40,058 nucleotides of DNA. Origin: a virus (Duplodnaviria; Heunggongvirae; Uroviricota; Caudoviricetes). The notes beneath the pieces were generated by a model, which worked only from the letters and a program-made list of their open reading frames with translations, did no database searches and was not told where the DNA came from. Location of the stretch: the IMG/VR virus record IMGVR_UViG_3300028456_000007; one strand, given 5' to 3'. Position 1 is the first letter of the stretch, and every line of letters starts with the position of its first letter. The position numbers and the translations under genes are program-made. Shown piece by piece: positions 990 through 39,682 of this stretch.

Positions 990-1028
990 ACAACAGGAAT
1001 TGTTTCGGTATAGCTTCTGGAGTTTTCT

Positions 1029-4659: not shown

Positions 4660-4724
4660 AATAAGTCCTCACTATATTAAGATATTCAGTGATGAGATAA
4701 ATAATCAGTTAATTAAGAACGATA

Positions 4725-7098: not shown

Positions 7099-8246
7099 AC
7101 AGTTTAACGGCAAATAACCGTTTGTCGCAACAGCTGGTGGTCAGCGTCGCTGAACACCTGTTGTTACGGCATGAATGCAGATTACCAAATCACCTGGCTG
7201 TAAGTAACCACAGAGAACTTTACCTGACTGTGGGGGGCGAGTTGTGCAGGAACTTAACCGCTGGTTTCGTGACGGAAGAGGGCTTTATGTCCATGTTATT
7301 CGTTGGGAGCCAGAAACACAGCGCGTTATCTATCTTCGCAAAGACTACCCGCATGAGTGCTTTAGTCCTTTGTGGAAATTCAGGCGTGATTTTGTTGAGT
7401 GTGAAGGACCACCAGCACATTGATTCTGCCATTCCGGGACGTTACACTGTTCAGGCACCTTATAAAGCGGGTGCCGGGCGTGGAAACCCGGAATTCACCA
7501 AAGCGCACAACCGCGCTCTTGCGGTTTTTTTGTGTCATGAGCAGCATTACGCCCAAATTATGGTGGGGCGTGCAGGGCCAACTTCGGTTGGGCCGGGTTC
7601 TTTGGTGACCGGTATTTCCACCCCTGTACGTCTCACCACCAATAAGGTCGTGGAAAGCCTTGGTGGTGAGTTATTTAAAATCACCAAAGAGGCTGCCATC
7701 ATGGCTACGATCCCAACCCTCACTCAACCTGAAATTGCCATCGTTGATGGTCAGGCTGTTACTTCATCCCTGGCTGTTGCCAACTTCTTCTCCAAACGTC
7801 ATGACGATGTACTGAAAAAGATCCGCACGCTTGAATGCTCCGCATCATTCACTGCCCGCAATTTTTCGGTGAGTGATTACACCGATTGCACAGGCCGCAA
7901 ACTACCTTGCTATCAAATAACCCGCGACGGCTTTGCGTTTCTTGCTATGGGTTTCACGGGTAAACGTGCTGCCCAGTTCAAAGAGGCATACATCAATGCC
8001 TTTAACCAGATGGAGAAACAGCTTTCAAGGCCCGCTGTACCGAGCGACGTTGCACATAACGCCAGCGTTCTCTGTTCCTACATTTCATCAATTCATCAGG
8101 TCTGGCTGCAGCAGCTTTATCCTATGTTGGCAAAAGCCGAATCTCCGCTGGCTGTTAGCTTATATGACTATATTAATGATGCTTCGGCGCTGGCCTGCCT
8201 CATAAATTTGTCGCTGAACCCTTCAGAGGTAAGGGGGCGCAAATGA
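7095..8246 (+). CDS. Rha-family phage regulatory protein (Rha-like domain in C-terminal half; alternative start ATG 7701)
   Basis: ATGA coupling to upstream gene at 7095; Rha-like segment IAIVDGQAVTSSLAVANFF...YQITRDGFAFLAMGFTGKRA; AAGAGG SD before ATG 7701; no in-frame stop between 7095 and 8246. Confidence 0.5.
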   Translation: MNSLTANNRLSQQLVVSVAEHLLLRHECRLPNHLAVSNHRELYLTVGGELCRNLTAGFVTEEGFMSMLFVGSQKHSALSIFAKTTRMSALVLCGNSGVILLSVKDHQHIDSAIPGRYTVQAPYKAGAGRGNPEFTKAHNRALAVFLCHEQHYAQIMVGRAGPTSVGPGSLVTGISTPVRLTTNKVVESLGGELFKITKEAAIMATIPTLTQPEIAIVDGQAVTSSLAVANFFSKRHDDVLKKIRTLECSASFTARNFSVSDYTDCTGRKLPCYQITRDGFAFLAMGFTGKRAAQFKEAYINAFNQMEKQLSRPAVPSDVAHNASVLCSYISSIHQVWLQQLYPMLAKAESPLAVSLYDYINDASALACLINLSLNPSEVRGRK

Positions 8247-8467
8247 TCCGGAATATTTTCAAACGTTTTACCAATCAGACTTTCCGTTGTCCTCGTCCGG
8301 GTCAGTGGTACACCACGCCTGCAGGGCATGTTCTACGTGTTAGCCTGGTTGACCGTGAATGTCAGAAGGTGGTTTGTGAACCGCTGGGCCGTAATTACCG
8401 CGTCAGTATGCCGCTTATAGCCTTTCGCTCCAGAAAAAACATGAAGCATCTCGGAGGTGCAGCATGA
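8243..8467 (+). CDS. hypothetical protein
   Basis: 74-aa ORF with ATGA coupling to upstream and downstream genes. Confidence 0.4.
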   Translation: MIRNIFKRFTNQTFRCPRPGQWYTTPAGHVLRVSLVDRECQKVVCEPLGRNYRVSMPLIAFRSRKNMKHLGGAA

Positions 8468-9282
8468 GTATGGAGCTGATGGTTAAAGCGATGAAAATTC
8501 GAGTGGGTAATCCATTGCGAAAACTGGTTCTGATCAAGCTGGCTGATAATGCCAGCGATCAGGGTGAGTGCTGGCCCAGCTACCAGCATATTGCTGACCA
8601 GTGCGAGATTAGCAAACGTTCTGTGATGAATCATATTGCGGCCCTTTGTGATTCCGGGCTGGTAAAAAAAGTCACCCGGAAAGGTGAAAAAGGTAACTCA
8701 AGTAATATCTATCTCCTTCATCTTGATGGTGCAGGAGATTCACTAGGGGGTAGTGCAAATAATTCACTATCTGGTGCAGCAAATTCACCAGGTAGTGCAG
8801 GAGTTGCACCAGGGGGTGGTGCAGGAGATTCACCCAGAACCAGTCACTCTTTTGAACCAGTCAAAGAACCAGTCAATGAACCAATAGCTGTTGGTGCATC
8901 TGCTGATGAGTCCGTGCGAGTTCGTTCAAACCGACCGGAATACTCTCCGGAGTTTGAGCAGGCATGGCTGGCATACCCCAAACGTGCTGGTGGCAATTCA
9001 AAATCTGCAGCCTTCAAAGCCTGGAAAGCCCGTTTGAATGAGGGGGTAAAACCCGAAACCATGCTGGAAGGTGTGAAACGCTACGCGGGCTGGGTATCTG
9101 CGATGGGTAACAGCGGCACACAATTTGTGAAACAGGCTGTCACGTTCTTTGGTCCGGATCGTCATTTCGAAGAATCCTGGGAAGTTCCTGCGGTATCTGC
9201 AGCCAGACGCGAGGACCCGTACTTCAAAGCCAGTTACGACAACGTGGACTACAGCCAGATCCCGGCAGGATTCAGGGGGTGA
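8464..9282 (+). CDS. replication initiation protein (N-terminal winged-helix domain, O-like)
   Basis: N-terminal LRKLVLIKLADNASDQGECWPSYQHIADQCEISKRSVMNHIAAL resembles phage replication-protein HTH domains; Gly/Ser linker encoded by iteron-like repeats. Confidence 0.5.
   Translation: MSMELMVKAMKIRVGNPLRKLVLIKLADNASDQGECWPSYQHIADQCEISKRSVMNHIAALCDSGLVKKVTRKGEKGNSSNIYLLHLDGAGDSLGGSANNSLSGAANSPGSAGVAPGGGAGDSPRTSHSFEPVKEPVNEPIAVGASADESVRVRSNRPEYSPEFEQAWLAYPKRAGGNSKSAAFKAWKARLNEGVKPETMLEGVKRYAGWVSAMGNSGTQFVKQAVTFFGPDRHFEESWEVPAVSAARREDPYFKASYDNVDYSQIPAGFRG
8728..8875. repeat. iteron-like direct repeats inside replication gene (candidate ori)
   Basis: five 16-bp near-palindromic units (GGTGCAGGAGATTCAC type) at 8728, 8752, 8773, 8794, 8818 with 21-24 bp spacing, then three perfect GAACCAGTCA copies at 8837, 8854, 8866. 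Confidence 0.45.
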
Positions 9283-26303: not shown

Positions 26304-26623
26304 TTGAGCTTGTACTTAAAAAACCGATCATCGCCCACAAAGAAACACTGCATGTGCTGGAAATACGTGAGCCTACGTATGACGAGATTGAGGCGCTGGG
26401 GTTCCCTTTCTCTGTTTCGCCTGATGGTGGTATGAAAATGGACAGTCAGGTAGCGCTGAAATATATCCCGCTTCTGGCCGGGATCCCGCGCTCGTCTGCA
26501 GCGCAGATGACGAAGCTGGATATTTTTAAGGCAGGCATGATTGTAATGCGTTTTTTTACCGGCTTGGAGACGGAAGAGACCTCCGGAAGCGATTCTACAA
26601 TGTCGCGTGGTTCTGGAAATTAA
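26300..26623 (+). CDS. tail assembly chaperone
   Basis: small ORF between tube and tape measure. Confidence 0.5.
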   Translation: MIELVLKKPIIAHKETLHVLEIREPTYDEIEALGFPFSVSPDGGMKMDSQVALKYIPLLAGIPRSSAAQMTKLDIFKAGMIVMRFFTGLETEETSGSDSTMSRGSGN

Positions 26624-26707
26624 ACCCCCTTGAACTTCGCCGGACGGCTATTTCCCACTTTGCTGATCTGGAGGCAGAGGCCGTCCGTATAAATGAGGAG
26701 ATGAAGC

Positions 26708-28609
26708 ATGGCTGATAATTTTCAGCTTAAAGCCATCATAACCGCCGTTGACAGGCTATCCGGCCCGCTTAAAGGTATGCAGCGTCAGCTTAAGGGGTTT
26801 CAGAAAGAAGTCTCCAGCCTTGCTCTGGGCGCTGCCGGGGCGGGTACTGCAATAATGGGGGCACTGGCACTCCCTGTAAAATCAGCCATCACCCTTGAAT
26901 CGAAGATGGCTGATGTCCGCAAAGTGGTGGACGGTCTGGATACGCCGGATGCGTTTAAGGCCATGACGGAGCAGGTACGCGCTTTGTCTACTGAGCTTCC
27001 CATGTCTGCAGACGGGATCGCGGAAATTGTGGCGGCTGGCGGTCAGGCCGGGATTGCACGTGATGAACTGATGCAGTTTGCCACTGATGCGGTGAAGATG
27101 GGCGTGGCCTTTGATACCACGGCTGAAGAGTCCGGGCAGATGATGGCCCAGTGGCGTACTGCGTTTAATATGACGCAGGATGAAGTGGCCGGGCTGGCTG
27201 ACAAAATCAACTACCTTGGTAATACCGGCCCGGCGAATGCGAAGAAAATCTCCGATATTGTTACGCGTATTGGTCCTTTAGGTGGTGTTGCAGGTGTGGC
27301 TTCCGGCGAAATCGCGGCAATGGGGGCAACCATTGCCGGGATGGGCGTGGAGTCAGAAATTGCCGCCACAGGGATCAAGAACTTCATGCTTTCCCTGACC
27401 GCGGGAAATTCCGCGACAAAATCGCAGAAACAGGCATTACGTTTTCTGCGGATCAATCCGAAGAAATTAGCTGCTGATATGCAGAAAGATGCCCGGGGAA
27501 CCATGCTGTCTGTACTGGATGCGATGGCTAAAGTGCCTAAAGAAAAACAGGCAGCTGTGCTGAATGCCCTGTTCGGGAAAGAGTCTCTGGGCGCGATAGC
27601 ACCTCTGCTGACTAACCTTGATTTGTTGCGTACCAACTTCAGGCGGGTTGCGGATTCCCAGCAGTATGGCAGTTCGATGCAGAAGGAATATGCTTCGAGG
27701 GCAGCGACGACGGAAAACCAGCTTTTACTTCTGCAAAATCAACTTGATGCCATTTCTTCCACTCTGGGGGAAACGTTTCTTCCTGAGGTTAATGATGGTC
27801 TTGAAGCGGTAAAACCGCTCCTTGAGGAAGTGAGAACGTTTGTCCGTGAAAACCCGGAGCTCGTTAAGACCATTGCTAAAATCGGTCTGGCTTTACTGAC
27901 AGTGGGGGCCGCTGCAGGCTCTTTGTCCAGAATCATGAAAGTTCTCGGCGGTGTGATGAATATGACGCCTGCTAAGGGGCTGATTGCTCTTCTGGTTGGT
28001 GGCGCTTACCTCATTATTGATAATTGGGAAACCGTAGGTCCTGTCATAAAAAAAGTCTGGCACGTGGTGGATGAAACGGCGCAGGCGATGGGGGGATGGG
28101 AAACTGTTCTGAAAGCGATTGCCCTGTTTATGGCAACCAAATGGGTTGCTGACGTTACCAAATCCATTACCGCAGTGACCAGAGAGATGCGTACGCTGGG
28201 GAAGGTATCGGCAGAAACGGGATTGATGGGGAAAGGCCGCGGCTTTATCGGGAAGGCCGGGGTATATGGTTTTCTGGGAACCCTGATGTATGAGCCGGTT
28301 AAAGATACTTTGGAAAGTGTTGTTCCTGAAGATACGGTTAACTGGCTGGATAATAAAGGGCTGTTTCTGGCTTCAGACTGGACGCCTTTTTTTGATCGTA
28401 AAGAGTACGAGCAGTATCAGGCCAGCCTGAGTCAGTACAAACCCAATGTTCCGCTGTTGAATCCATCTTCTTCCATGACACAGCACAGCGAGCTGAAAGT
28501 CACGTTCGAGAATGCTCCGCCAGGTATGAAGATAATTGATGTACCGGGCAAAGCCGATCCCCTGATGAAAATCACGCACGATGTGGGGTATTCTCCATTC
28601 AGACGATAA
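26708..28609 (+). CDS. tail tape measure protein
   Basis: 633 aa, Ala/Gly-rich helical, central hydrophobic segment. Confidence 0.85.
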   Translation: MADNFQLKAIITAVDRLSGPLKGMQRQLKGFQKEVSSLALGAAGAGTAIMGALALPVKSAITLESKMADVRKVVDGLDTPDAFKAMTEQVRALSTELPMSADGIAEIVAAGGQAGIARDELMQFATDAVKMGVAFDTTAEESGQMMAQWRTAFNMTQDEVAGLADKINYLGNTGPANAKKISDIVTRIGPLGGVAGVASGEIAAMGATIAGMGVESEIAATGIKNFMLSLTAGNSATKSQKQALRFLRINPKKLAADMQKDARGTMLSVLDAMAKVPKEKQAAVLNALFGKESLGAIAPLLTNLDLLRTNFRRVADSQQYGSSMQKEYASRAATTENQLLLLQNQLDAISSTLGETFLPEVNDGLEAVKPLLEEVRTFVRENPELVKTIAKIGLALLTVGAAAGSLSRIMKVLGGVMNMTPAKGLIALLVGGAYLIIDNWETVGPVIKKVWHVVDETAQAMGGWETVLKAIALFMATKWVADVTKSITAVTREMRTLGKVSAETGLMGKGRGFIGKAGVYGFLGTLMYEPVKDTLESVVPEDTVNWLDNKGLFLASDWTPFFDRKEYEQYQASLSQYKPNVPLLNPSSSMTQHSELKVTFENAPPGMKIIDVPGKADPLMKITHDVGYSPFRR

Positions 28610-28673
28610 TATAACTACTTTAATCAAGTAGGGTTATTGAGTGGTAAAGTTTGTGCTGAATGTAGGAGAGAAT

Positions 28674-29162
28674 ATGAAGAAAATGTTTATATTGTTGTTG
28701 GCTGTAGGACTGCCATTAAACTCCTTTGCGAAGCCAGTAACGGAAAAGCAGCTTGCTACATACTTTATAGATAACGTTAAAACTTCAGCGGATAAGAATA
28801 TAGATCTAGATGTAGAGGGAATAAATAGACTGTCTGTAATATGCCCAGCAAAGTCGGCAAGTGGAACTCTTTTAATAAAAAAAGCATCCTACGAGTTTAA
28901 TAAAAGCATTGGTGCTTTTGATTTTGAAAATAACTCACAATCTGCACCATTGACTTTTATTGTACCAATTAGTGAGGATGAAAATAACTTTGACTCGGAA
29001 ATTATTGGTTTCTCTTTTGCATTTAAAATGCCAAGAGGGCAATTCTTTGTTGATGTTACGAAAACAGGGAAGGTAAAGGCTGGCGTAAATATTAGTGGTG
29101 AAAGCGGAATTACTTATTCATCATGTAGAATAGATACTCATAATGTTGATTATGATCGTTAA
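28674..29162 (+). CDS. secreted hypothetical protein (moron inside tail operon)
   Basis: AGGAGA SD before ATG 28674 (MKKMFILLLAVGLPLNSFA signal peptide); strongly AT-rich; own terminator. Confidence 0.55.
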   Translation: MKKMFILLLAVGLPLNSFAKPVTEKQLATYFIDNVKTSADKNIDLDVEGINRLSVICPAKSASGTLLIKKASYEFNKSIGAFDFENNSQSAPLTFIVPISEDENNFDSEIIGFSFAFKMPRGQFFVDVTKTGKVKAGVNISGESGITYSSCRIDTHNVDYDR

Positions 29163-29182
29163 TTTTATTACCTAATAAAAAA

Positions 29183-29208
29183 CCGCGTTTACACGCGGTT
29201 TTTATTTG
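29183..29208. terminator. rho-independent terminator (bidirectional)
   Basis: ACCGCG-TTTACA-CGCGGT hairpin flanked by A-run upstream and T-run downstream. Confidence 0.6.
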
Positions 29209-29218
29209 AGGTGACGCC

Positions 29219-30592
29219 ATGGATTTTTCTCATATTTCTTCGTACCTATCCTCTGATTCTCGAAGTGGCTGGCGTGAAAAGCTACTTGAAGCATCATTTC
29301 GAGGTGTGCCGTTTAAGGTTGAAGAAGAAAGTGCGGGAACCGGTCGCCGTGTGGAAACACATGAATACCCGAACCGCGACAAGCCCTATACCGAAGATCT
29401 GGGAAAAGTCACTTTCCGCCCGTCCATCACAGCTTATGTGGTGGGAGATGACTGCTTTGACCAGCGCGATCGCCTGATTGAAGCGCTGAATAAACCCGGT
29501 CCCGGCACGCTTGTCCACCCGACATATGGTGAGCTGAAAGTCTGTGTTGACGGGGAAGTTCGGGTCAGCACATCGAAAAGTGAAGGGCGTATTGTCCGCT
29601 TTGACCTGAAGTTTGTCGAAGCAGGAGAACTCTCTTACCCCACATCAGGTGCGGCGACGGCGCAGACGCTGATGTCATCCTGTTCTGCACTGGATGACTG
29701 CATCAGTGACAGCTTCAGCGGTTTCAGTATCGATGGTGTGGCGGATTTCGTGCAGAACGACGTTATCGGTAATGCCAGCATAATGCTGGGGTATGTTTCT
29801 GATGCGATGAAAGTGGTGGATTCTGCCGTATCGGATGCCGCCAGGCTGTTGCAGGGGGATATCTCGGTACTTCTGCCGCCGCCATCGTCAGGCAAAAATT
29901 TCGTTGAGCAGGTGCAGAAAATGTGGCGTACCGGGAAACGCCTTTATGGTAACGCCAGCGACCTGGTCACCATGATCAAAACGCTTTCCGGTGTCAGCCT
30001 CGGCAGCGATCTGCAACCGCGCGGCGTCTGGAAAACGGACAGTAAAACCACCGCCACGGCGACGCAGCAGCGTAACGTGGTTGCCAGCACCCTTCGTACG
30101 ACCGCAATCAGCGAAGCGGCGTATGCCGTCACCCGATTGCCTGCGCCAACAACTTCCGCGGTGATGCAGAATTCCGCAGTGGGGCAGGCAACAACACCTG
30201 CGCAGAGCACTGGCTGGCCTTCCGTCACGCATCCGGCACTGAACAATGCACCGGCGGTGAAAAACACAGTTGACCTGCCGACGTGGGAAGAACTGACTGA
30301 CATTCGCGACACACTGAATACGGCAATTGATAAGGAGTTGTCCCGTACAACCAGTGATGCGCTGTTTCTGGCGCTGCGCCGGGTGAAAGCAGATCTGAAT
30401 GCGGATATCAACACGCGCCTTGAACAGTCTGCACGGATCATTCAGCGCACGCCGGATGAGGTTTTACCCGCGCTGGTGCTGGCGGCGACCTGGTTTGATA
30501 ACGCGGCGCGTGATGCGGACATTATCCGGCGTAATGCCATTACGCATCCCGGCTTTGTGCCGGTGATCCCTCTGAAGGTGCCAGTGCAATGA
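29219..30592 (+). CDS. DNA circulation protein (Mu gp43-like)
   Basis: N-terminal region and position after tape measure. Confidence 0.7.
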   Translation: MDFSHISSYLSSDSRSGWREKLLEASFRGVPFKVEEESAGTGRRVETHEYPNRDKPYTEDLGKVTFRPSITAYVVGDDCFDQRDRLIEALNKPGPGTLVHPTYGELKVCVDGEVRVSTSKSEGRIVRFDLKFVEAGELSYPTSGAATAQTLMSSCSALDDCISDSFSGFSIDGVADFVQNDVIGNASIMLGYVSDAMKVVDSAVSDAARLLQGDISVLLPPPSSGKNFVEQVQKMWRTGKRLYGNASDLVTMIKTLSGVSLGSDLQPRGVWKTDSKTTATATQQRNVVASTLRTTAISEAAYAVTRLPAPTTSAVMQNSAVGQATTPAQSTGWPSVTHPALNNAPAVKNTVDLPTWEELTDIRDTLNTAIDKELSRTTSDALFLALRRVKADLNADINTRLEQSARIIQRTPDEVLPALVLAATWFDNAARDADIIRRNAITHPGFVPVIPLKVPVQ

Positions 30593-31668
30593 ACGACAAT
30601 GTCACGCTACGGGTAAATGGCCGGGAGTGGAATGGCTGGACATCGGTGCGCATCGGTGCCGGTATTGAACGGCTGGCGCGGGATTTCAGTGTGGAGATCA
30701 CTCGCCAGTGGCCGGGAGATGAGGGTATCACCACGCTTCAGCCGCGCATTAAAAACGGTTCAAAAGTGGAGGTGCTGATTGGTGATGAGCTGGTGATCAC
30801 CGGCTGGGTGGAGGCGACGCCCGTTCGTTACGATGCCCGTTCGGTCAGCACCGGTATTGCCGGACGCAGTCTGACCGCTGACCTGATTGACTGTGCAGCC
30901 GAACCGACACAGTTTAACGGACGATCGCTGGTACAGATAGCGCAGGCGCTTGCTGCGCCTTTCGGCATTGAGGTGGTGAACAACGGTGCGCCGTCGGGTG
31001 TTATTCCTGACGTCCAGCCCGATCACGGCGAAACGGTGATTGAGGTGATCAACAAAATACTCGGTCAGCAGCAGGCACTGGCTTACGACGACCCGCACGG
31101 CAGGCTGGTGATTGGCGGTATTGGCTCAACGCGGGCACATACCGCGCTGGTACTCGGGGAAAACATCCTTTCCTGCGATACGGAGAAGAGTATCCGGGAG
31201 CGGTTTTCTGTTTACCAGGTGGCGGGGCAGCGTGCCGGAAACGACGATGATTTCGGTGAGGCCACCACCACCGCGCTGCGGGCCCGCACAGAGGACGCAT
31301 TTATTGCCCGTTACCGTCCGATGTATATCAGGCAGACAGGGCAGGCCACGGGGGCAGGCTGTATTGCGCGTGCTGACTTTGAAGCCCGACAACGGGCGGC
31401 GCGGACGGATGAAACCACCTATGTGGTGCAGGGCTGGCGACAGAGTAACGGTACGCTGTGGCAGCCCAACCAGCGGGTGATTGTCTTCGATCCGGTCTGT
31501 GGTTTCGACAATACCGAACTGCTTGTTTCGGAAGTCACGTTTACTCAGGACCAGAACGGCACCCTGACGGAAATCCGTGTCGGCCCACCTGATGCTTATC
31601 TGCCTGAACCCGAAGCCCCCGGCGCGCGGAAAAAGAAAAAAGCCAGAGTACAGGAGGACCCGTTCTGA
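30589..31668 (+). CDS. baseplate hub protein (Mu gp44 / gpD-like)
   Basis: position and size; ATGA coupling. Confidence 0.7.
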   Translation: MNDNVTLRVNGREWNGWTSVRIGAGIERLARDFSVEITRQWPGDEGITTLQPRIKNGSKVEVLIGDELVITGWVEATPVRYDARSVSTGIAGRSLTADLIDCAAEPTQFNGRSLVQIAQALAAPFGIEVVNNGAPSGVIPDVQPDHGETVIEVINKILGQQQALAYDDPHGRLVIGGIGSTRAHTALVLGENILSCDTEKSIRERFSVYQVAGQRAGNDDDFGEATTTALRARTEDAFIARYRPMYIRQTGQATGAGCIARADFEARQRAARTDETTYVVQGWRQSNGTLWQPNQRVIVFDPVCGFDNTELLVSEVTFTQDQNGTLTEIRVGPPDAYLPEPEAPGARKKKKARVQEDPF

Positions 31669-32216
31669 TGAGGACGATTGAAGCCATGCAGCGACAACTC
31701 CTCGGCCTGATTGGGCGGGCAGTGGTGAAAAGCATCAGTGCCGCCACGAAATGTCAGACCGTGGATGTGTCTCTGATTGCCGGTGAACCCAAAGCCGGGG
31801 TTGAACATCTTGAACCCTACGGTTTTACCTCAAGGGCAAACAGCGGTGCGGAAGCGGTGGTGTTGTTTCCGGATGGCGACCGTTCTCATGCGGTGGTTGT
31901 TACGGTGTCGGACCGGCGCTACCGCCTGAAAGGGCTGCAGACGGGTGAGGTGGCTGTCTATGACGATCAGGGGCAGTCCGTGACGCTGACCCGGGAGGGG
32001 ATCGTGGTGGACGGTGCAGGTAAAACGATCACGTTTCGCAATGCGCCTAAGGCTCGTTTTGAAATGGACCTGGAAGTGACCGGACAGGTGAAAGACCTGT
32101 GCGACTCCGGCGGCACCACCATGTCAGCGATGCGGCTTGCCTATAACGGGCATCGTCACAGAGAGAACGGTCAGGGCAGTAACACCGACAAACCTGATAA
32201 AGCGATGGAGGCATGA
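31668..32216 (+). CDS. baseplate spike protein (gpV / Mu gp45-like)
   Basis: position and size. Confidence 0.7.
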   Translation: MRTIEAMQRQLLGLIGRAVVKSISAATKCQTVDVSLIAGEPKAGVEHLEPYGFTSRANSGAEAVVLFPDGDRSHAVVVTVSDRRYRLKGLQTGEVAVYDDQGQSVTLTREGIVVDGAGKTITFRNAPKARFEMDLEVTGQVKDLCDSGGTTMSAMRLAYNGHRHRENGQGSNTDKPDKAMEA

Positions 32217-32641
32217 TGGAACTGTGGCTGACGGTGAACGGTAAACGCACCTGCGCCAGCGCACCGCTGGATCCGCTGACCCGTGCCGTGGTGATTTCCC
32301 TGTTCACCTGGCGGCGGGCTGAACCTGATGACAATGCCGACGTCCCGATGGGATGGTGGGGGGATACCTGGCCTGCGGTACAGAATGACCGTTACGGCTC
32401 CCGACTGTGGCTGCTTCAGCGCAGCAAACTGACCAATCAGCTGGTGCAGACGGTAAGGGGGTATATCCGCGAATGCCTGCAATGGATGATTGATGACGGC
32501 GTGGTGTCCCGTATTGATCTGGATATCCGCCGCACCGGGATTAATGAACTGGGTAACAGTATCACTCTCTGGCGTCGTGACGGACCGGTAATGATTTCTT
32601 TTGATGATCTGTGGAGTGCGATAACGCATGGCGGACAGTGA
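32213..32641 (+). CDS. baseplate wedge protein (gpW/gp25-like, Mu gp46-like)
   Basis: position and size. Confidence 0.65.
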   Translation: MMELWLTVNGKRTCASAPLDPLTRAVVISLFTWRRAEPDDNADVPMGWWGDTWPAVQNDRYGSRLWLLQRSKLTNQLVQTVRGYIRECLQWMIDDGVVSRIDLDIRRTGINELGNSITLWRRDGPVMISFDDLWSAITHGGQ

Positions 32642-33686
32642 ATTTCAGCGCCCGACGCTGGCAGAAAATATCAGTATGCTCCGTAACGATTTATTCGCCA
32701 GGCTGGACGTCAGCGACACGCTCCGGCGCATGGATGAAGACGTGCGGGCAAAGGTGTATGCGGCGGCGCTGCATACGGTTTACGGGTACATCGATTATCT
32801 GGCAATGAATATGCTGCCTGACCTGTGCGATGAGTCCTGGCTGGCGCGACATGCTGCGATGAAACGGTGTCCGCGCAAGGGGGCCACGGCTGCCAGCGGG
32901 TATATGCGCTGGGAAGGTGTCAGCGATGGCCTGAAGGTGACCGCCGGGAGTGTTATTCAGCGCGATGACCTGGTTCAGTACACGGCAACTGCCGATGCAA
33001 CCAGCACTGGTGGTGTCCTGCGTGTGCCGATCACTTGCTCAACTACAGGCGCGGTCGGTAACGCTGACGACGGTACGGCATTAATCCTGGTCACGCCGGT
33101 GAATGGTCTGCCGTCTTCCGGTGTGGCTGACACCCTGACAGGCGGATTTGATACTGAAGAGCTGGAAACGTGGCGCGCCCGCGTCATTGAGCGGTATTAC
33201 TGGACGCCGCAGGGCGGGGCTGACGGGGACTATGTCGTCTGGGCTAAAGAAGTGCCCGGCATTACCCGCGCATGGACATACCGTCACTGGATGGGAACGG
33301 GAACTGTCGGTGTGATGATTGCCAGCAGTGACCTGATTAATCCCATTCCGGAAGAATCAACGGAAACGGCAGCAAGACAACATATCGGGCCACTGGCCCC
33401 GGTGGCAGGCTCTGATTTGTATGTATTCAGGCCGGTGGCACATACGGTGGATTTTCATATCCGCGTGACGCCGGACACACCGGAAATACGGGCTGCCATT
33501 ACCGCGGAGTTGCGTTCGTTCCTGCTGCGTGATGGTTATCCGCAGGGAGAACTGAAGGTGTCACGTATCAGTGAAGCGATTTCCGGTGCGAACGGGGAAT
33601 ACAGCCATCAGTTGCTTGCACCGGTGGACAATATCTCCATTGCGAAAAACGAACTGGCGGTACTGGGGACGATTTCATGGACGTGA
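32628..33686 (+). CDS. baseplate J-like protein (Mu gp47-like)
   Basis: 352 aa; position. Confidence 0.8.
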
Positions 33687-34261
33687 CAAACGATGATTAC
33701 ATCCGCCTGTTATCGGCACTGTTGCCGCCCGGTCCGGCGTGGTCAGCCAGCGATCCGGCGATTGCCGGTGCGGCACCGTCATTAACCCGTGTTCATCAGC
33801 GTGCGGATGCCCTGATGCGGGAGCTGGATCCGCGCACCACCACTGAACTGATAAACCGCTGGGAGCGTCTGTGCGGTCTGCCGGATGAATGTATTCCGGC
33901 GGGAACGCAGACCCTTCGCCAGCGTCAGCAACGGCTGGATGCGAAGGTTAACCTGGCGGGCGGCATCAACGAGGATTTTTATCTTGCACAGCTTGCTGCC
34001 CTGGGCAGACCAGATGCCACCATCACGCGATACGACAAAAGCACGTTCACCTGCTCATCGGCCTGTACTGACGCGGTGAATGCGCCGGAATGGCGGTATT
34101 ACTGGCAGGTCAACATGCCAACCACCACCAACACCACTTGGATGACATGTGGCGATCCCTGTGATTCCGCGCTGCGTATCTGGGGCGACACCGTTGTCGA
34201 GTGTGTGCTTAACAAACTCTGCCCGTCGCATACCTACGTAATTTTTAAATATCCGGAGTAA
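33677..34261 (+). CDS. tail protein (Mu gp48-like, DUF2313-type)
   Basis: position between baseplate J and tail fibre. Confidence 0.6.
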
Positions 34262-34264
34262 TCC

Positions 34265-35017
34265 ATGCATCGTATAGACACGAAAACCGCGCAGAAGGAT
34301 AAGTTCGGCGCGGGTAAGAACGGTTTTACCCGTGGTAACCCCCAGACCGGCACGCCTGCCACCGATCTGGATGATGACTACTTTGATATGTTGCAGGAAG
34401 AACTCTGCAGCGTGGTGGAGGCATCCGGTGCCAGCCTGGAGAAGGCGCGGCACGACCAGTTGCTTACCGCGCTTCGTGCGCTGCTGTTAAGCCGCAAGAA
34501 TCCGTTTGGCGATATCAAATCGGATGGCACTGTGCAAACGGCTCTCGAAAACCTTGGTTTGGGAGAAGGCTCTGCATTACCCGTAGGTGTGCCTGTCCCG
34601 TGGCCTTTATCCACAACGCCAACAGGCTGGCTGAAATGCAACGGTGCGTCTTTTTCTGCTGAAGAATACCCGGAACTGGCAAAGGCTTATCCGACAAATA
34701 AATTGCCTGATTTACGTGGTGAGTTTATTCGTGGCTGGGATGACGGGCGCGGTGTCGATAGCGGTCGCGCGCTTCTTTCTGCCCAAGGCGATGCTATTCG
34801 AAACATTACCGGGCGTGTAGATAATGCGCTAACAAGTGCTCCAACTATTTATCATGGAGCTATGCAATATCAAGGCGCCAGCTCTGTAACAATGGCTGAA
34901 GGCGGTAAGGTTGTATCCGCAATGAATATTTCTTTTGATGCTTCACGTGTTGTTTCGACAGCTTCTGAGAACCGCCCCCGCAACATTGCATTTAATTTCA
35001 TGGTAAGGGCTAAATAA
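34265..35017 (+). CDS. tail fibre protein, constant N-terminal part fused to currently expressed variable C-terminal part
   Basis: N-terminus [21 protein letters not shown] resembles Mu S-type fibre; crossover site falls at residues ~97-101 (LGLGE). Confidence 0.8.
34542..34567. other. hix/gix-like recombination site (left, inside tail fibre gene)
   Basis: CTCTCGAAAACC-TT-GGTTTGGGAGAA; compare recalled hixL TTCTTGAAAACC-AA-GGTTTTTGATAA. Confidence 0.6.
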
Positions 35018-35610
35018 TGAAACCTGTATTTGATGAAAATGACCTGGCAACAGAGGCGGGCAACATCCGTTGTTTCTACTTCGATCCTGTAACGTTCGAA
35101 TATACTGGCTGGTCTGACGAATATATTAATGTTGGTGTAAGCATGCCTGGCCATTCAACAGATATTGACCCAGGTGATGAAGTGGACGGAAAAATTGCAG
35201 TGTTCACAAACGGTCAGTGGGAGCTGTACGAGGACCATCGAGGGGGCGCGGTTTATTCAACAACCGATGCTTCAGCCGTTACGGTGGACTATATTGGCCC
35301 GGTAAAGGATGGTTACACCATCCTTGCACCTTCAGGCCCATACGATAAATGGGATGGAGAGAAATGGGTGACCGATACTGAGGCACAGCATAGCGCCGCA
35401 GTAGACGCGGCAGAAGTACAGCGTCAGTCACTGATTAATACTGCAATGGCTTCCATTAGTCTGATTCAACTTAAATTGCAGGCCGGGCGGAAGCTGATGC
35501 AGGCAGAGACCACCCGACTTAACACTGTGCTGGATTACATTGACGCGGTGACGGCAACAGATACCAGCACAGCGCCGGATGTCATCTGGCCTGAACTGCC
35601 GGAGGCGTAG
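35017..35610 (+). CDS. tail fibre assembly protein
   Basis: Tfa-like sequence directly after fibre gene. Confidence 0.8.
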   Translation: MKPVFDENDLATEAGNIRCFYFDPVTFEYTGWSDEYINVGVSMPGHSTDIDPGDEVDGKIAVFTNGQWELYEDHRGGAVYSTTDASAVTVDYIGPVKDGYTILAPSGPYDKWDGEKWVTDTEAQHSAAVDAAEVQRQSLINTAMASISLIQLKLQAGRKLMQAETTRLNTVLDYIDAVTATDTSTAPDVIWPELPEA

Positions 35611-36019
35611 GCCATTCAATATCTGGCACACTGGAGGTATCAACCAGCTCCAGTGCGTCCAGGTAATCCAGCCACAAATTATATTGCGCCAGTTCCTCGT
35701 CTTTCAGACGACCAATAGCGGCTTTACCGGGCCATTGTTTACTGTTCATGTATTCGTTGGCCTGATTAAGCAATAATTGCCTTTCTGATTCTGCCTGTTG
35801 AATAAGTTCTTCATGTGATGGTGAAGGTATTAGTGCCCATGTGGGTAATCCATTTTCTCCTGCAACACGAATTTTGCCATCTGGGGGCGTATTTATTGCA
35901 AATTCATTATAAACATCGTCACTGACAGCCAGAGCATCATCTGGCCATGAATTTGCATTAATGTAATCATCCTTAAGTGCAGGATTCACAAAAATGTTTA
36001 AAGATGGACTATAAAACAT
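35582..36019 (-). CDS. alternative tail fibre assembly protein (paired with silent fibre variant)
   Basis: Tfa-like sequence on opposite strand, convergent with the other assembly gene. Confidence 0.75.
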   Translation of the reverse strand: MFYSPSLNIFVNPALKDDYINANSWPDDALAVSDDVYNEFAINTPPDGKIRVAGENGLPTWALIPSPSHEELIQQAESERQLLLNQANEYMNSKQWPGKAAIGRLKDEELAQYNLWLDYLDALELVDTSSVPDIEWPTPPAVQAR

Positions 36020-36020
36020 A

Positions 36021-36356
36021 TTACACCCCTATAGCGATATAACGACCTAATACAGCGTTTGCAGCAGTCGCTATGCTTGAAAAACCGCGGAACTGATTTG
36101 ATGTAATTGCAGAAGCCGACAGGATTCCTGCGCCTGAAGGTGTATGCCCCACATGACTAACTATCATTACATAACATGCTGACGGAAAGGCAAAAGGAAA
36201 ATCATTAAGATATCCGGCATCTTCACCACCAGACCCACCAAATCTCGCCTGCCCCCACTGAATAATCAGTGTTCTCCGGGAACCTGAAATAATTAACGGG
36301 ATCGTTACATACCCATTCAGGCCAATGACACCCGATGCAGTGCCAGCCAGAGATAA
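36021..36356 (-). CDS. alternative tail fibre C-terminal segment, silent in this orientation
   Basis: reverse-strand reading frame continues from the right crossover site (GLGELSLAGT...) with no own ATG; in-frame stop just outside the site. Confidence 0.6.
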   Translation of the reverse strand, partial: LSLAGTASGVIGLNGYVTIPLIISGSRRTLIIQWGQARFGGSGGEDAGYLNDFPFAFPSACYVMIVSHVGHTPSGAGILSASAITSNQFRGFSSIATAANAVLGRYIAIGV

Positions 36357-36382
36357 TTCTCCCAAACCAACCTTTCAAATAT
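36357..36382. other. hix/gix-like recombination site (right)
   Basis: reverse strand ATATTTGAAAGG-TT-GGTTTGGGAGAA; inner half identical to left site, outer half divergent. Confidence 0.55.
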
Positions 36383-36441
36383 TTTTCTGAATCAGGTGAT
36401 ATTTCGCCTCTTCTCCTGTTTTTACAACAGGAGAAGCACTC

Positions 36442-37005
36442 ATGATTTACGGGTATGTTCGTGTATCAACAAATCATCAGGATACAGAGTTGCAACGTCT
36501 TGCACTTGAGTCAGCTGGCTGTGAGCGAATTTATGAAGAATATGCCAGTGGCAGAACAGCTAATCGCCCTGTGTTAAAGGAATTAATTACGGTGATGAAA
36601 AGTGGAGATGAGTTGATTGTCTGGAAGTTAGATCGGATAGGGAGAAATGTGCTGCATGCGCTATTGATGTTTCAAAATCTGCACGAAAAAGGTGTTAATT
36701 TTCGGAGTATTACAGATGGCGTAGACCTGAAAACAGCAAGTGGTCGCTATAATTTCCGTAATATTCTTTCTGCTGCGCAGTATGAATCTGATTTGAATAG
36801 CGAGCGAACTTTAGCTGGTTTGGCTATTGCCAGATCCAAAGGCCGGATTGGTGGGCGTAGACCGAAGTTTAGCGACGAGCAGTGGCAACAGATGGGAGCG
36901 CTCATAGCGGCAGGGAAATCACGGCGTTATGTTGCACGTATCTATAACGTTGGGCTATCAACCCTATATAAACGATTTCCTGTTACTGGCATTCAAACGA
37001 AATAA
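36442..37005 (+). CDS. DNA invertase, serine recombinase (Pin/Gin/Hin/Cin family)
   Basis: YGYVRVSTNHQ catalytic Ser motif, resolvase-type N-terminal domain, C-terminal HTH; AGGAGAA SD. Confidence 0.9.
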   Translation: MIYGYVRVSTNHQDTELQRLALESAGCERIYEEYASGRTANRPVLKELITVMKSGDELIVWKLDRIGRNVLHALLMFQNLHEKGVNFRSITDGVDLKTASGRYNFRNILSAAQYESDLNSERTLAGLAIARSKGRIGGRRPKFSDEQWQQMGALIAAGKSRRYVARIYNVGLSTLYKRFPVTGIQTK

Positions 37006-37148
37006 TTTAAAAGCAATTTAAAGAGTTATTTGTCTAATGTTGGAAGCCGCAGCCACGTCGTATGCAAGAACGTGCTGCGGCTGGCTGGCGAACTTTCGAT
37101 AGTGCGAGTATTGAATGATTTCCAGCCGTTACCGATTTTACGTGTTAA

Positions 37149-37397
37149 TTAGTGAACAAACCACTCGTCAGCAGATTCCCAGGTATCTTTCAGAGTCTCC
37201 TGAACAAAAGTTTTTGCAGAATCCTTATCTGCGGTGCGTGTAACAGAAAGGCCATCGTTGCTGGTGGCTTTTACGATCACCTCTACATCGTCATAACGTT
37301 TACTGATGCGTCGGGTTAATTCTTCCTTTAACGCATCCACAGCACCGGTTGGCATTTTAGTCATTTTTTCTTTGGCTATGCAGATTTCAATACGCAT
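37149..37397 (-). CDS. dinI: DinI-family DNA-damage-inducible protein
   Basis: [11 protein letters not shown] ... [16 protein letters not shown] closely resembles DinI; LexA boxes upstream. Confidence 0.8.
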
Positions 37398-37410
37398 AAA
37401 AGTCCCTCTA

Positions 37411-37430
37411 TACTGTGTTTGTATACAGTA
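37411..37430. promoter_or_regulatory. LexA box (SOS operator) upstream of dinI-like gene
   Basis: TACTGTGTTTGTATACAGTA = TACTGT-N8-ACAGTA consensus. Confidence 0.7.
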
Positions 37431-37438
37431 TTATTTTT

Positions 37439-37458
37439 AACTGTATGGATAAACAGTG
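37439..37458. promoter_or_regulatory. second LexA box
   Basis: AACTGTATGGATAAACAGTG = CTGT-N8-ACAG core. Confidence 0.5.
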
Positions 37459-38556
37459 TCAAGAGGTCTTATTTCTGCTCCTTTGGAGCTCTTCAAAACG
37501 ATTATGTAAAGATTTCGGATACAGTTCGGTATATACCTGCCATAGCACGTTTAATGAACGATGCCCTGTAACCTGGGCGACTTCCTCAATACTAAAACCA
37601 GCCTCAAATAAGCGACTTGCCCCTTCTCTACGCAAATCATGGTATCGCAGATCTTTAATACCTAATTTGCTTCTTACCCTCTGGAATCCCGCAGTAACAG
37701 AAGTGCTGTTATATGGAAAAATGAATTCTGATTTTTTGGGTTGTCGTTGGACGATATCCCAGGCTTCCCCAAGCAAGGCTACTTTCATATGGTTGCCTTC
37801 CTTTTTACGTGGATCTTTCCTGTCTCTTACGAGTATGGATTTTTGTTCCTGATCGAGATCCTCCCATCGTAATCGGCATACTTCACCGATTCGCATACAT
37901 GACCACACAGAAAATTTGAGGATATCAACGAACGGAATTTTTGAGCATTTATGTGTAGATCGTTGTTGAAGACCTTCAATGAGCATGTCCAGTTCATCAG
38001 ATGCCGGTCTACGATTACGACGATTTGATTTACCAATTAAACCAAGTTTAAGTAGATATGGACGAGCGGCTTTTGCTGGGTTTGATGTGTAATTAATTCC
38101 ATATACAGGTTTGGCAGCATCCAGAACACTGCCAAGATAACTAACATCGTGGCTAACTGTAGCTGGACCTGCACCAGCGTTGTTTCTTAGCCTGCAATGT
38201 TCAATTACGTCATTTTCTGTCAGTTCAGATAGTTTGATCGCGGAGATGTCACTATCCATAAGCAGTTCCAGCACATATCTTTTAGTACGGCCTGCTTTAC
38301 CTCCGGCATTTGGGTCATTTAAATATTTGTGTAGTAAGTCACGGACTGTAAGTCCGTCAACTGCATTTGATGATGGAATGCCATATAGATCTAATTCCAT
38401 CACTTTCTGTGTGCCCCATGTTTTGGCATGAGCATGTTTAGGGAATGTTTTGCTTTCCCTGTAAGTGATAACACCTTTTTCTTTGATAATCACATTACAG
38501 CGATAGCGTGGTGTGCCATCGGATTTTAGTCGTTTCTCTATGTTATAGTACGCCAT
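37459..38556 (-). CDS. int: tyrosine site-specific integrase (dusA-associated type)
   Basis: C-terminal catalytic pattern HDLRREGASRL ... TGHRSLNVLWQVY; adjacent to 5' end of dusA. Confidence 0.9.
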   Translation of the reverse strand: MAYYNIEKRLKSDGTPRYRCNVIIKEKGVITYRESKTFPKHAHAKTWGTQKVMELDLYGIPSSNAVDGLTVRDLLHKYLNDPNAGGKAGRTKRYVLELLMDSDISAIKLSELTENDVIEHCRLRNNAGAGPATVSHDVSYLGSVLDAAKPVYGINYTSNPAKAARPYLLKLGLIGKSNRRNRRPASDELDMLIEGLQQRSTHKCSKIPFVDILKFSVWSCMRIGEVCRLRWEDLDQEQKSILVRDRKDPRKKEGNHMKVALLGEAWDIVQRQPKKSEFIFPYNSTSVTAGFQRVRSKLGIKDLRYHDLRREGASRLFEAGFSIEEVAQVTGHRSLNVLWQVYTELYPKSLHNRFEELQRSRNKTS

Positions 38557-38644
38557 TACACGACCTCGTTATTTCGGGTTCCCATAAAACGTGGGAACCT
38601 GAGCGGGAACCTAACGCGAGAAAAATAGCCTGAAATGTTCAAAA

Positions 38645-39682
38645 ATGCACGATAATCATGAAACACAAAAAATTAATCAAACCAGCGTGATGCCTGAAAA
38701 AACTGGTGTTTACTGGAATTCTCGGTTTAGCATTGCTCCTATGCTCGACTGGACGGACAGACATTGCCGCTATTTCTTGCGTCTGCTTTCCCGCAATACG
38801 TTGCTGTATACCGAAATGGTGACCACAGGGGCGATTATTCACGGTAAAGGTGATTACCTGGCGTACAGTGAAGAAGAACATCCGGTAGCGTTGCAACTCG
38901 GCGGTAGCGATCCGGCGGCGCTGGCACAGTGTGCGAAGCTGGCAGAAGCGCGTGGATATGATGAGATCAACCTGAATGTCGGCTGCCCGTCTGACCGGGT
39001 GCAGAACGGCATGTTTGGTGCGTGTCTGATGGGTAATGCGCAGCTGGTTGCCGACTGCGTGAAAGCGATGCGCGATGTGGTGTCGATTCCAGTGACGGTG
39101 AAAACGCGTATTGGCATCGATGACCAGGACAGCTATGAATTTCTCTGCGATTTCATCAACACCGTTTCCGGCAAAGGCGAGTGTGAGATGTTTATCATCC
39201 ACGCACGTAAAGCCTGGCTTTCGGGGTTAAGCCCGAAAGAAAACCGTGAAATCCCGCCGCTCGATTATCCGCGTGTGTATCAACTGAAGCGTGACTTTCC
39301 GCATCTGACAATGTCGATTAACGGTGGTATCAAGTCGCTGGAAGAGGCCAAAGCACACCTGCAACATATGGATGGCGTGATGGTCGGGCGCGAGGCGTAT
39401 CAGAATCCGGGTATTCTGGCGGCGGTAGACCGGGAGATCTTTGGTTCCTCGGATACCGATGCCGATCCAGTGGCGGTAGTGCGCGCCATGTATCCGTACA
39501 TTGAGCGTGAACTCAGCCAGGGGACGTATCTCGGCCATATTACCCGGCATATGTTGGGCTTGTTCCAGGGTATTCCTGGCGCGCGGCAGTGGCGGCGTTA
39601 TTTAAGTGAAAATGCCCATAAAGCGGGTGCAGACATTAATGTGCTGGAACACGCGCTCAAACTGGTGGCGGATAAGCGTTAA
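38645..39682 (+). CDS. dusA: tRNA-dihydrouridine synthase A
   Basis: 345-aa ORF recognised as DusA from memory of the E. coli protein; TIM-barrel Dus pattern (NLNVGCP ... K-x-R); conserved host neighbour pspG follows. Confidence 0.9.

Follow-up and report, generated by a model that had tools for sequence, protein, structure and literature searches.

A probable Din-type inversion switch in the tail-fibre gene of a temperate SfV/SKA5-like phage

The tail-fibre gene of the prophage considered here is split by a short sequence that recurs, inverted, in front of a serine DNA invertase gene. Does the fibre of this phage have one form or two, and which enzyme would exchange them? Textbooks have long covered invertible fibre cassettes, beginning with those of Mu, P1 and e14. 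We analysed the locus within its window, that is, the whole stretch of 40,058 nucleotides. Very probably, a temperate phage similar to SfV and SKA5 switches its tail fibre here by site-specific inversion of the Din type (Hin/Gin/Cin/Pin-like).

Anatomy of the cassette

The host element is an SfV/SKA5-like E. coli prophage integrated beside dusA. It aligns colinearly with SKA5, a complete phage genome, and looks like a complete phage. The fibre gene (34265..35017, plus strand, 250 aa) follows baseplate genes similar to gp47 and gp48 of Mu. Its first 96 or so codons (34265..34553, plus strand), delineated by homology across relatives, form the constant part Sc, which lies outside the invertible segment and attaches to the baseplate, the variable 3' part presumably binding the receptor. 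Homology to phages SfV, SfI, SfII and SfIV and to all related prophages extends to 34567/34568 and then breaks. In the current state the variable C-terminus is of the Collar type (Pfam Collar, PF07484, E 2e-15, residues 108-155). It is followed by a tail-fibre assembly (chaperone) gene (35017..35610, plus strand, 197 aa; Pfam Caudo_TAP, E 2.7e-26) whose start overlaps the fibre stop (TAATG), implying translational coupling. The same stop/start arrangement holds in both orientation states.

The second module lies on the opposite strand. It consists of an alternative fibre C-terminus (Sv', 36021..36368, minus strand; Gp53-like_C, PF21882, E 1.1e-12), which has no usable 5' end at present, and an assembly gene (35582..36019, minus strand, 145 aa). 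The latter also belongs to Caudo_TAP (E 2e-34), so that each variant indeed has an assembly gene of its own, as stated in the initial annotation. The two assembly genes are convergent and overlap by 29 bp; no convincing intrinsic terminator, such as that annotated in D108, was found between them. All ORFs of the switch are intact.

The annotated records of P1 and D108, and e14 too, show the same Sc-Sv-U / U'-Sv' layout. The G segment of Mu and D108 (Gin) and the C segment of P1 (Cin) share with the window this logic, the adjacent serine invertase, the 26-bp sites and the 2-bp core. However, the segments of Mu and P1 span 3-4.2 kb and encode long fibres, whereas the window fibres have 250 and 212 aa. 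Unlike the window, P1 has its invertase gene on the other side and an annotated enhancer.

An in-frame TGA, located within the outer half-site of the invertase-side crossover site, closes the frame of the gp53-like module upstream (...KNI-stop-KVGLGELSLAG), and thus the invertase-facing module is silent. The prediction that inversion would fuse it in frame to the constant fibre part was confirmed in silico. Flipping at the TT core yields ...ALENLGLGE followed directly by LSLAGT..., that is, the 96-residue N-terminus joined to the gp53-like C-terminus in a protein of 212 aa. The same fused junction is present in 24 complete genomes, where the product is annotated as 'gp53-like domain-containing protein'. 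In SfV-like and P2-like prophages, the exact 145-aa chaperone is recorded in 483 collection blocks, invariably beside a gp53-like fibre C-terminus. The collection has no other record of the exact 250-aa fibre protein.

The segment itself (34554..36370, core to core, 1817 bp, without strand) is bounded by the cores of two crossover sites, and the homology breakpoints of the relatives match these boundaries. Site L (34542..34567, plus strand), CTCTCGAAAACC-TT-GGTTTGGGAGAA, has its core at 34554-34555. Site R (36357..36382, plus strand), TTCTCCCAAACC-AA-CCTTTCAAATAT, has its core AA at 36369-36370, which reads TT on the opposite strand. As the core dinucleotides are identical, the 2-nt overhangs would pair after a 180-degree rotation. 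The initial annotation described a 26-bp site repeated in inverse orientation. This holds for the core with the segment-internal half, a stretch of 14 bp, TTGGTTTGGGAGAA, that is exact in both sites, and does not hold for the full 26 bp: the reverse complement of site R matches site L at 19/26 positions, and the outer half-sites match at just 5/12. A search for inverted repeats gave 19-nt arms with 89% complementarity. Such unequal outer halves are normal for this family, since outer half-sites track the flanking backbone at every related locus.

The 14-mer occurs only twice in the 40-kb window, in sites L and R. Taken alone this is weak evidence, as an exact inverted repeat of 14 bp was reached by 6% of resampled regions. 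A loose core pattern, AAACCWWGGTTT with at most two mismatches, was not enriched (7 found, 6 expected), and the full 26-bp consensus score was used instead. All 26-mers were scored against the Din consensus TTCTCNNAAACCWWGGTTTNNGAGAA (22 scored positions, cut-off at least 16/22); the scan recovers the annotated P1 cix sites, the D108 gix repeats and the e14 sites. Sites L (21/22) and R (17/22) are the only 26-mers in 40 kb that reach the cut-off. Resampling gave on average 0.04 sites with scores of at least 17, and none of 200 resamples contained a pair 1-5 kb apart.

The plasmid p15B Min system is a shufflon-like multi-site fibre inversion system. No third crossover site that would allow such multiple inversion was found by the consensus scan in the 40-kb window. 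Shufflon-like versions, as in EPEC E2348/69 (PMC4272514), have at least three sites, whereas the window has exactly two. In the Citrobacter and Serratia relatives, no inverted repeats were observed at seed 10. The consensus scan later located a pair of sites in Serratia; at the Citrobacter locus, just a remnant of the site next to the invertase is left.

Homologous to the switch is the P segment of the cryptic prophage e14 in E. coli, described together with PinE by Plasterk & van de Putte 1985 (as cited in PMC4272514). Fibre residues 1-105 are 97% identical to e14 StfP, and the gene order ymfQ-stf-tfa / tfa-stf-pin is common to both. Site L is the same sequence as the fibre-side site of e14 in K-12 and holds the published e14 inverted repeat TTGGTTTGGGAGAAGG (PMC12529663); the 14-bp core with inner half is identical at both sites. 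Continuous flipping in culture is documented for the e14 segment, which has this 14-bp repeat (PMC4272514, PMC12529663), with the orientations at roughly 1:1 (PMC4272514). The two segments are similar in size, with 1797 bp in e14 (PMC12529663) and 1817 bp here. However, there are several differences. The invertase-side outer half-site is CGTTTATGAAAA in e14 and CCTTTCAAATAT in the window, and the silent frame is open in e14, whereas here it is closed by the TGA. The variable modules are 36-55% identical (36% for the gp53-like one), and the window invertase is only 54% identical to PinE. Finally, e14 is a relic in icd, whereas the window element is apparently a complete dusA-integrated phage.

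The invertase and its leader

The serine invertase gene that the initial annotation placed immediately downstream is intact (36442..37005, plus strand, 187 aa) and begins 59 bp past site R. Its product contains the Resolvase (PF00239, E 3e-36) and HTH_7 (PF02796, E 7e-12) domains. Residues 1-181 align to the Mu Gin structures 3UJ3 and 4M6F (E 1e-56) with Ser9 in place; of 115 homologues, 113-115 retain S9, R7 and D64. The index lists the identical protein for about 20,000 collection blocks. No second invertase was found in the 40-kb window among the ORFs or by Pfam.

The proposed course of inversion is as follows. The invertase would bind both 26-bp sites as dimers and synapse them, cut at the 2-bp core (TT/AA), rotate half of the tetramer by 180 degrees and religate, so that the segment would flip. 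Site L splits the fibre gene into its constant 5' and variable 3' parts, and the 1817-bp segment comprises two convergent modules, each made up of a variable fibre C-terminus and its own chaperone. In the present orientation the late operon produces the 250-aa Collar-type fibre with the 197-aa chaperone, and in the flipped one it would produce the 212-aa gp53-like fibre with the 145-aa chaperone.

The enzyme is divergent. Pin, Cin, Gin and the invertases of P2-like phages are mutually 73-96% identical, whereas the window enzyme is 49-54% identical to each of them (49-53% to Mu Gin and P1 Cin) and falls outside that clade. The paradigm of Fis/enhancer-dependent inversion is Hin, acting on the H segment of Salmonella. 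Its signature comprises basic residues at positions 47/48/51 (helix B, contact with enhancer DNA), Gln151/Arg154/Leu155 (contact with Fis), and the helix-E lock Phe104-105-106/His107/Met109/Leu112 (PMC3798978, PMC4513852). The window enzyme shares with Hin the catalytic architecture and the hix-like site consensus, and the subunit-rotation chemistry is expected for it too. However, Hin flips a promoter, whereas the window switch flips a coding module. At Hin positions 47/48/51 the window enzyme has K, E, T; at 151/154/155, Q, A, L; and in helix E, Y, N, F, R, I, A. The replaced Hin residues include R48 (E), K51 (T), R154 (A), F105 (N), H107 (R), M109 (I) and L112 (A). At every signature position the six classical enzymes are invariant or carry basic residues, whereas the window enzyme departs from the Fis/enhancer signature at several. 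The alternative helix-E residues are fixed throughout the 115 homologues of its subfamily, among which the positions that contact Fis vary. The regulation of the enzyme may differ from that of the Fis/enhancer-controlled ones.

The leader of the invertase gene (36395..36436, plus strand) contains two conserved candidate RNA hairpins with a putative regulatory function. The second one (36411-36435), TTCTCCTGTT-tttac-AACAGGAGAA, covers the Shine-Dalgarno sequence, and its ends TTCTCC...GGAGAA resemble a crossover site. The predicted folding energy of the leader is -24.6 kcal/mol (z -5.3). The same structure precedes the homologues from Serratia and Citrobacter (z -5.6 and -6.5), whereas pinE, cin and gin lack it in front of them (z -0.4, -1.3 and +0.6). 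A search of Rfam gave no match to the hairpins; its one hit, to CssrB, lies in another part of the region, is below threshold (E 0.14, 22 vs 76 bits) and was dismissed.

A candidate enhancer interval (36460..36531, plus strand, nucleotides 19-90 of the invertase gene) was delineated by homology to the Cin recombinational enhancer, the position being taken from the annotation of the P1 record. Synonymous-codon identity to the classical genes is 47-61% within this interval and 29-44% elsewhere. The difference has the expected direction and is not significant overall (p = 0.013-0.34 in five pairwise comparisons, one of them below 0.05). A simple scan for pairs of Fis motifs about 48 bp apart found none even in cin, gin and pin, and thus is uninformative for the window.

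One reading, which we offer only tentatively, is that the enzyme represents a very widespread, uncharacterised sister subfamily of Hin/Gin/Cin/Pin that acts on Pin-type fibre cassettes and is controlled differently. It is based on the rewired helix-E lock (Y-N-F-R..I..A instead of F-F-F-H..M..L), the loss or variability of the residues contacting Fis and the enhancer, the distinct outer half-site AA-CCTTT, and the conserved hairpin over the ribosome-binding site. These features would fit an invertase that is naturally Fis/enhancer-independent or differently gated, with its level set by translational throttling or autorepression.

In this strain the segment is probably inverted by the adjacent enzyme rather than by a Pin protein acting in trans. 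It seems unlikely that inversion is performed mainly by trans-acting invertases (PinE, PinQ/PinR, P2-like), the adjacent enzyme being weak, inactive on these sites, or directed to some other target. Such action has a precedent in e14, where PinE, PinQ and PinR each invert the P segment, the dominant one being PinQ and not the adjacent PinE (PMC12529663), to which PinQ is only 38% identical in our alignment. The e14 sites share the sequence of site L and of the inner half of site R, the outer half of R makes a poor half-site (dyad symmetry 5/12), and the window invertase is devoid of several classical signature residues. On the other hand, genes of this invertase subfamily are accompanied by the outer half-site AA-CCTTT... 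both in E. coli and in another genus, Serratia, which suggests co-adaptation. The enzyme is very widespread in identical, intact form, and its catalytic residues are retained in nearly all homologues. Moreover, both orientations are about equally frequent among the elements with this invertase (see below), and the window encodes no other one.

Orientation in relatives and function of the switch

Natural flips were observed in three pairs of strains or contigs carrying this type of cassette. The identity of their flanks is 96.0-99.9%; the 1.85-kb segment is inverted precisely from site to site, with identities of 99.73% (loci L005/L006), 99.35% (L009/L015) and 99.68% (L012/L013). The predicted inverted junction sequences were found verbatim in natural IMG/VR contigs. 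Comparison of these sequences thus demonstrates that this kind of cassette inverts in nature. The very same 145-aa chaperone and gp53-like/Collar cassette occur in P2-like prophages, also in both orientations; unlike the window, these have a long fibre of 435-509 aa and Pin-like invertases (about 85% identity to PinE).

Both states also occur beside the invertase considered here. The complete E. coli genomes were identified by the leader of this invertase and scored at the right junction: the Collar module is at the invertase-side (silent) junction in 88 of about 173. Among the analysed loci with this invertase, the window, L003, L004, L042 and L043 have the Collar module in the expressed position, and L002, SKA5, L039 and L022 have it in the silent one. 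The closest flipped comparison with this exact invertase is L004 vs SKA5 (94.3% identity over 1293 bp, inverted). Among 5,426 complete genomes of E. coli, no fully isogenic flipped partner was found for the cassettes from the window or L002; the identity of the best matches is 85-94%. The cassettes are highly mosaic in content, and module replacement could be behind some of the orientation differences.

The window represents one assembled orientation, with the Collar-type fibre in frame. There is little reason to believe that in this strain the switch has become a relic locked in one state, with parts that look intact but have stopped inverting, for instance through decay of site R or of an enhancer, so that the Collar-type fibre would be fixed. 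The modest score of site R with its degenerate outer half, the equivocal conservation of the enhancer interval, the lack of an isogenic flipped pair for this invertase, and the absence of the exact 250-aa fibre from other records all point in this direction. However, the same site R sequence is found in both orientation classes, in L008/SKA5 and L039 on the one side and in the window and L042 on the other. The reading frames are intact, the prophage is colinear with SKA5, and the orientation ratio in the 173 genomes is about 50:50.

By analogy with Mu and P1, and given the different families of the two C-termini (Collar and Gp53-like_C), the two orientations of the switch probably correspond to two host ranges. 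It is very doubtful that it serves a lysogen for host defence, instead of or besides changing the host range, via a fibre-derived protein blocking adsorption of other phages. The model for this is e14, where inversion yields StfE2, which contains a gp53-like domain and prevents T2 from adsorbing (PMC12529663), and the gp53-like module of the window occupies the position homologous to the e14 stfE pseudogene. However, the TGA in site R closes the invertase-side frame, and hence no StfE2-like product would be made from that flank; the two gp53-like modules share only 36% identity; and the element, unlike e14, looks like a complete phage, for which a fibre function is the simple reading.

Finally, homologous or illegitimate recombination with module replacement at a conserved fibre motif, which could be suspected given the strong mosaicism of the cassettes and the fact that the site is also the end of homology to SfV-family phages, whose matches in the phage collection showed no invertible cassette, is already disfavoured as a source of the orientation differences and extremely improbable, as the three pairs are nearly identical and inverted exactly between the sites, the sites match the recombinase consensus and adjoin a serine invertase, and inversion of the homologous e14 segment was shown experimentally (PMC4272514, PMC12529663).

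Thus the switch is ordinary, being a close relative of the known switches of e14, Mu and P1; the exception is its invertase, which comes from an uncharacterised side-branch. For annotation and assembly this means that the fibre gene of a common prophage family has two legitimate forms, of which an assembly freezes one, and that the 'hypothetical' ORF on the reverse strand is the other half of the fibre. Should the invertase prove to work naturally without an enhancer or under another kind of gating, it would be nature's equivalent of the laboratory 'hyperactive' mutants of Hin and Gin, and a compact tool for programmable inversion.

Crossover sites and organisation of the fibre cassette

The fibre gene (34265-35017, 250 aa, Collar domain) lies downstream of Mu-like baseplate genes (Baseplate_J, Phage_Mu_Gp48). 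Its stop codon is overlapped by the start of a gene encoding a Caudo_TAP assembly chaperone (35017-35610, 197 aa). A second Caudo_TAP gene (35582-36019, minus strand, 145 aa) is convergent with the first and overlaps it by 29 bp (35582-35610); it is preceded on the same strand by a Gp53-like_C reading frame of 115 codons (36021-36368). Then follow the invertase gene (36442-37005, 187 aa, Resolvase and HTH_7 domains), separated from the crossover site by a 59-bp leader, a DinI-like gene, a tyrosine integrase gene and the host dusA. Thus each fibre variant has an assembly gene of its own and a serine invertase lies downstream of the switch, as the initial annotation had proposed. An 18-nt inverted repeat (89%; 35529-35546 and 35655-35672) flanks the overlap of the chaperone genes. 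It reflects the homologous chaperone C-termini (..LDYIDA.. and ..LDYLDA..) on opposite strands. Phage D108 has a terminator between its convergent chaperone genes, whereas the window has no convincing one.

The fibre-side crossover site L (34542-34567, CTCTCGAAAACC-TT-GGTTTGGGAGAA) is located inside the fibre ORF, and the invertase-side site R (36357-36382) reads TTCTCCCAAACC-AA-CCTTTCAAATAT on the plus strand. The initial annotation described one 26-bp site repeated in inverse orientation. This holds for the 2-bp core and the segment-internal half-site, 14 bp that are identical in both sites. However, the outer half-sites match at 5 of 12 positions, and the reverse complement of site R agrees with site L at 19 of 26; the repetition is therefore limited to the core and inner half. 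An independent repeat search found inverted 19-nt arms (89%) at the same sites. The exact 14-bp inverted repeat alone is not rare, being reached by 6% of resampled 6.5-kb regions.

All 26-mers of the window were scored against the family consensus TTCTCNNAAACCWWGGTTTNNGAGAA (maximum 22). Only sites L (21) and R (17) scored at least 16. By chance such matches are rare: resampled windows had a mean of 0.04 sites reaching 17, and not one offered two sites at a suitable distance. The same scoring finds the cix sites and the inverted repeats annotated in P1 and D108, respectively, and both sites of e14, the cryptic prophage of E. coli K-12, so the scan works as intended. The invertase-side outer half-site (AA-CCTTT...) is retained together with the window's invertase subfamily in E. 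coli and Serratia, whereas the Pin, Cin and Gin sites have CGTTT or GGTTT.

In-silico inversion of 34554-36370 produces the predicted in-frame fusion ...ALENLGLGE|LSLAGTASG.... The resulting fibre has 212 aa and ends one base before the start codon of the 145-aa chaperone gene.

Evidence for inversion

The predicted inverted junctions were constructed and searched for in 5,426 complete E. coli genomes. Of these, 515 contain the left junction as seen in the window (coverage of at least 80%), and 24 contain its predicted inverted form, where the annotation reads "gp53-like domain-containing protein". The inverted right junction, where the Collar start abuts site R, occurs in 88 of the approximately 173 complete genomes with the leader of the window's invertase; a segment that flips freely would be expected to divide about evenly in this way. 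Verbatim matches to the predicted junction strings are also present in IMG/VR contigs.

Three pairs of loci have colinear, near-identical flanks and a near-identical but inverted segment between the sites. These are the sister prophages L005 (strain 998) and L006 (strain 0-4, beside ssrA), with 99.73% identity over 1854 bp of inverted segment and 99.86% in the flanks; the P2-like prophages L009 and L015 (99.35% over 1850 bp; flanks 96.0-97.2%); and the SfV-like L012 and L013 (99.68% over 1854 bp; flanks 97.6%). They are direct evidence of flipping for this type of cassette. However, the invertases of all three pairs are Pin-type, not of the window's subfamily. Among elements with the window's own invertase no fully isogenic flipped pair was found, as the cassettes are very mosaic; the closest is L004 and the complete Escherichia phage SKA5 (94.3% over 1293 bp, inverted). 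Both orientation classes occur naturally with this invertase, between flanks 98-99.9% identical. One class, with the Collar module expressed, comprises the window, L003, L004, L042 and L043; the other, with this module silent, comprises L002, SKA5, L039 and L022.

The e14 segment is flipped about 1:1 in ordinary cultures (PMC4272514) and is inverted by each of PinE, the e14 invertase, PinQ and PinR (PMC12529663). PinQ shares only 36-38% identity with PinE or with the enzyme of the window, and thus action of a 54%-identical invertase on these sites is well within precedent. Taken as an invertible fibre switch, the finding is real and the earlier reading is supported.

The best-supported mechanism is the standard serine-invertase pathway. 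Invertase dimers would bind sites L and R, the sites would synapse, and double-strand cuts with 2-nt overhangs would be made at the identical TT/AA cores; half of the tetramer would then rotate by 180 degrees and the ends would be religated. As an outcome, the fibre C-terminal domain would be exchanged along with the chaperone that matches it; transcription of both is from the late operon of the phage. We infer that the adjacent enzyme is the catalyst in the window's strain, as we infer the mode of regulation of the reaction. The two fibres may recognise different receptors, judging from their different domain families and by analogy with Mu and P1.

The invertase and its leader

The Pin, Cin, Gin and P2-prophage invertases are 73-96% identical to each other, and the window's enzyme is 49-54% identical to each of them. 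The protein is intact. Compared with the residue signature of Fis/enhancer-dependent invertases (PMC3798978, PMC4513852; Hin numbering), it retains the catalytic residues and Phe88, Phe106, Lys47, Gln151 and Leu155, and departs at the remaining positions. The basic helix-B residues R48 and K51, which contact enhancer DNA, are replaced by Glu and Thr, and the Fis contact R154 by Ala. In the helix-E lock, F104-F105-F106-H107 is Y-N-F-R, M109 is Ile and L112 is Ala, the block being GRYNFRNILSAAQYESDLNSERT instead of the invariant GRFFFHVMGALAEMERELIVERT of the classical enzymes. The alternative helix-E residues are invariant across 115 homologues (at least 77% identity), and the Fis-contact positions vary freely in the same set, a pattern that would be expected if the Fis contacts were unused. 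We treat the switch as Din-like, of the Hin/Gin/Cin/Pin type, without assigning it to the Fis/enhancer-dependent subclass. That the subfamily is gated differently from Hin and Gin is a tentative suggestion, on the unlikely side. This subfamily is widespread in Enterobacteriaceae under generic names only; about 20,000 collection blocks have an identical protein indexed.

The invertase leader (36395-36436) contains two conserved hairpins, GGTGAtattTCGCC and TTCTCCTGTTtttacAACAGGAGAA. The second has a perfect stem of 10-12 bp covering the Shine-Dalgarno sequence (z from -5.3 to -6.5 in three genera). It is kept in Serratia and Citrobacter homologues, and the pinE, cin and gin leaders lack it. At the DNA level this hairpin forms a near-perfect palindrome, and its ends, TTCTCC...GGAGAA, resemble those at the outside of a crossover site, with a spacing of 15 bp, compared to 16 in the site. 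It could throttle translation or serve as an operator for autoregulation.

Relatives, cassette mobility and the silent copy

The switch region is homologous to the P segment of e14, the invertible part of that prophage. The e14 gene order ymfQ-stfP-tfaP / tfaE-stfE-pinE is the same in the window; its fibre-side site is identical to site L, its invertase-side site has the core and inner half of site R, and the first 105 residues of its fibre are 97% identical to those of the window fibre. The published e14 inverted repeat TTGGTTTGGGAGAAGG includes the window's 14-mer (PMC12529663). The switch is effectively the P segment within an intact phage, and its kind is long known.

The window is colinear with SKA5 (30.2 kb covered at 95-99%). 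Window regions 26329-29293 (the position of the tape-measure region), 7109-9206, 1222-2546 and 3819-5121 have no megablast match in SKA5 and are probably replaced or divergent modules. The prophage is inserted at the 5' end of dusA, adjoined by a dusA-type tyrosine integrase gene and the DinI-like gene (all within 37149-38556 and 38645-39682); dusA-targeting integrases have been described (PMC4482086). Many E. coli genomes carry the same prophage family next to dusA. At the start of the window (1-1221), position 1 aligns with SKA5 17819, which is close (a few hundred bases) to the dusA fragment of that phage. The window begins within the prophage, and thus the left attachment site lies outside it.

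In the tail module, identity to the serotype-converting Shigella phages SfV, SfI, SfII and SfIV is 97-98%. This homology runs exactly to the final base of site L (34568 being the next; position 4569 of the query 30000-38600). The crossover site is therefore also a boundary between modules in the evolution of the fibre, even in the SfV-family records, among whose matches to this query no invertible cassette was found. The exact 145-aa chaperone and gp53-like/Collar cassette is common to unrelated tail backbones, P2-like (L009, L010, L015, L016, L018; fibres of 435-509 aa) and SfV-like (L012, L013, L017; about 250 aa). Between these backbones the core and inner half-site do not vary, and each backbone has outer half-sites of its own. 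The cassette behaves as a portable module.

In three loci (L035, L040, L041; 538-3141 of each) an invertase identical to that of the window adjoins segments with a SopE-domain gene. SopE is a family of type III effectors described in Salmonella. The gene sits between a fibre-side site (CTCTCGAAAACC TT GGTTTAGAAGAA) and an invertase-side site, and thus a virulence moron is apparently inside a potentially invertible segment.

In the window, an in-frame TGA in the outer half of site R (36375-36377, minus strand) closes the gp53-like frame upstream, and the module is therefore silent in the present orientation. The same TGA is found in L003, L004 and SKA5, whereas strain MB06101 (L002, 4865-4890) has TCA; there a 525-nt RefSeq "phage tail protein" ORF spans the site and shares bases with the start of the invertase gene. 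A one-base polymorphism thus opens or closes the frame of the "silent" copy, a point relevant to the idea of defence of the e14 StfE2 type.
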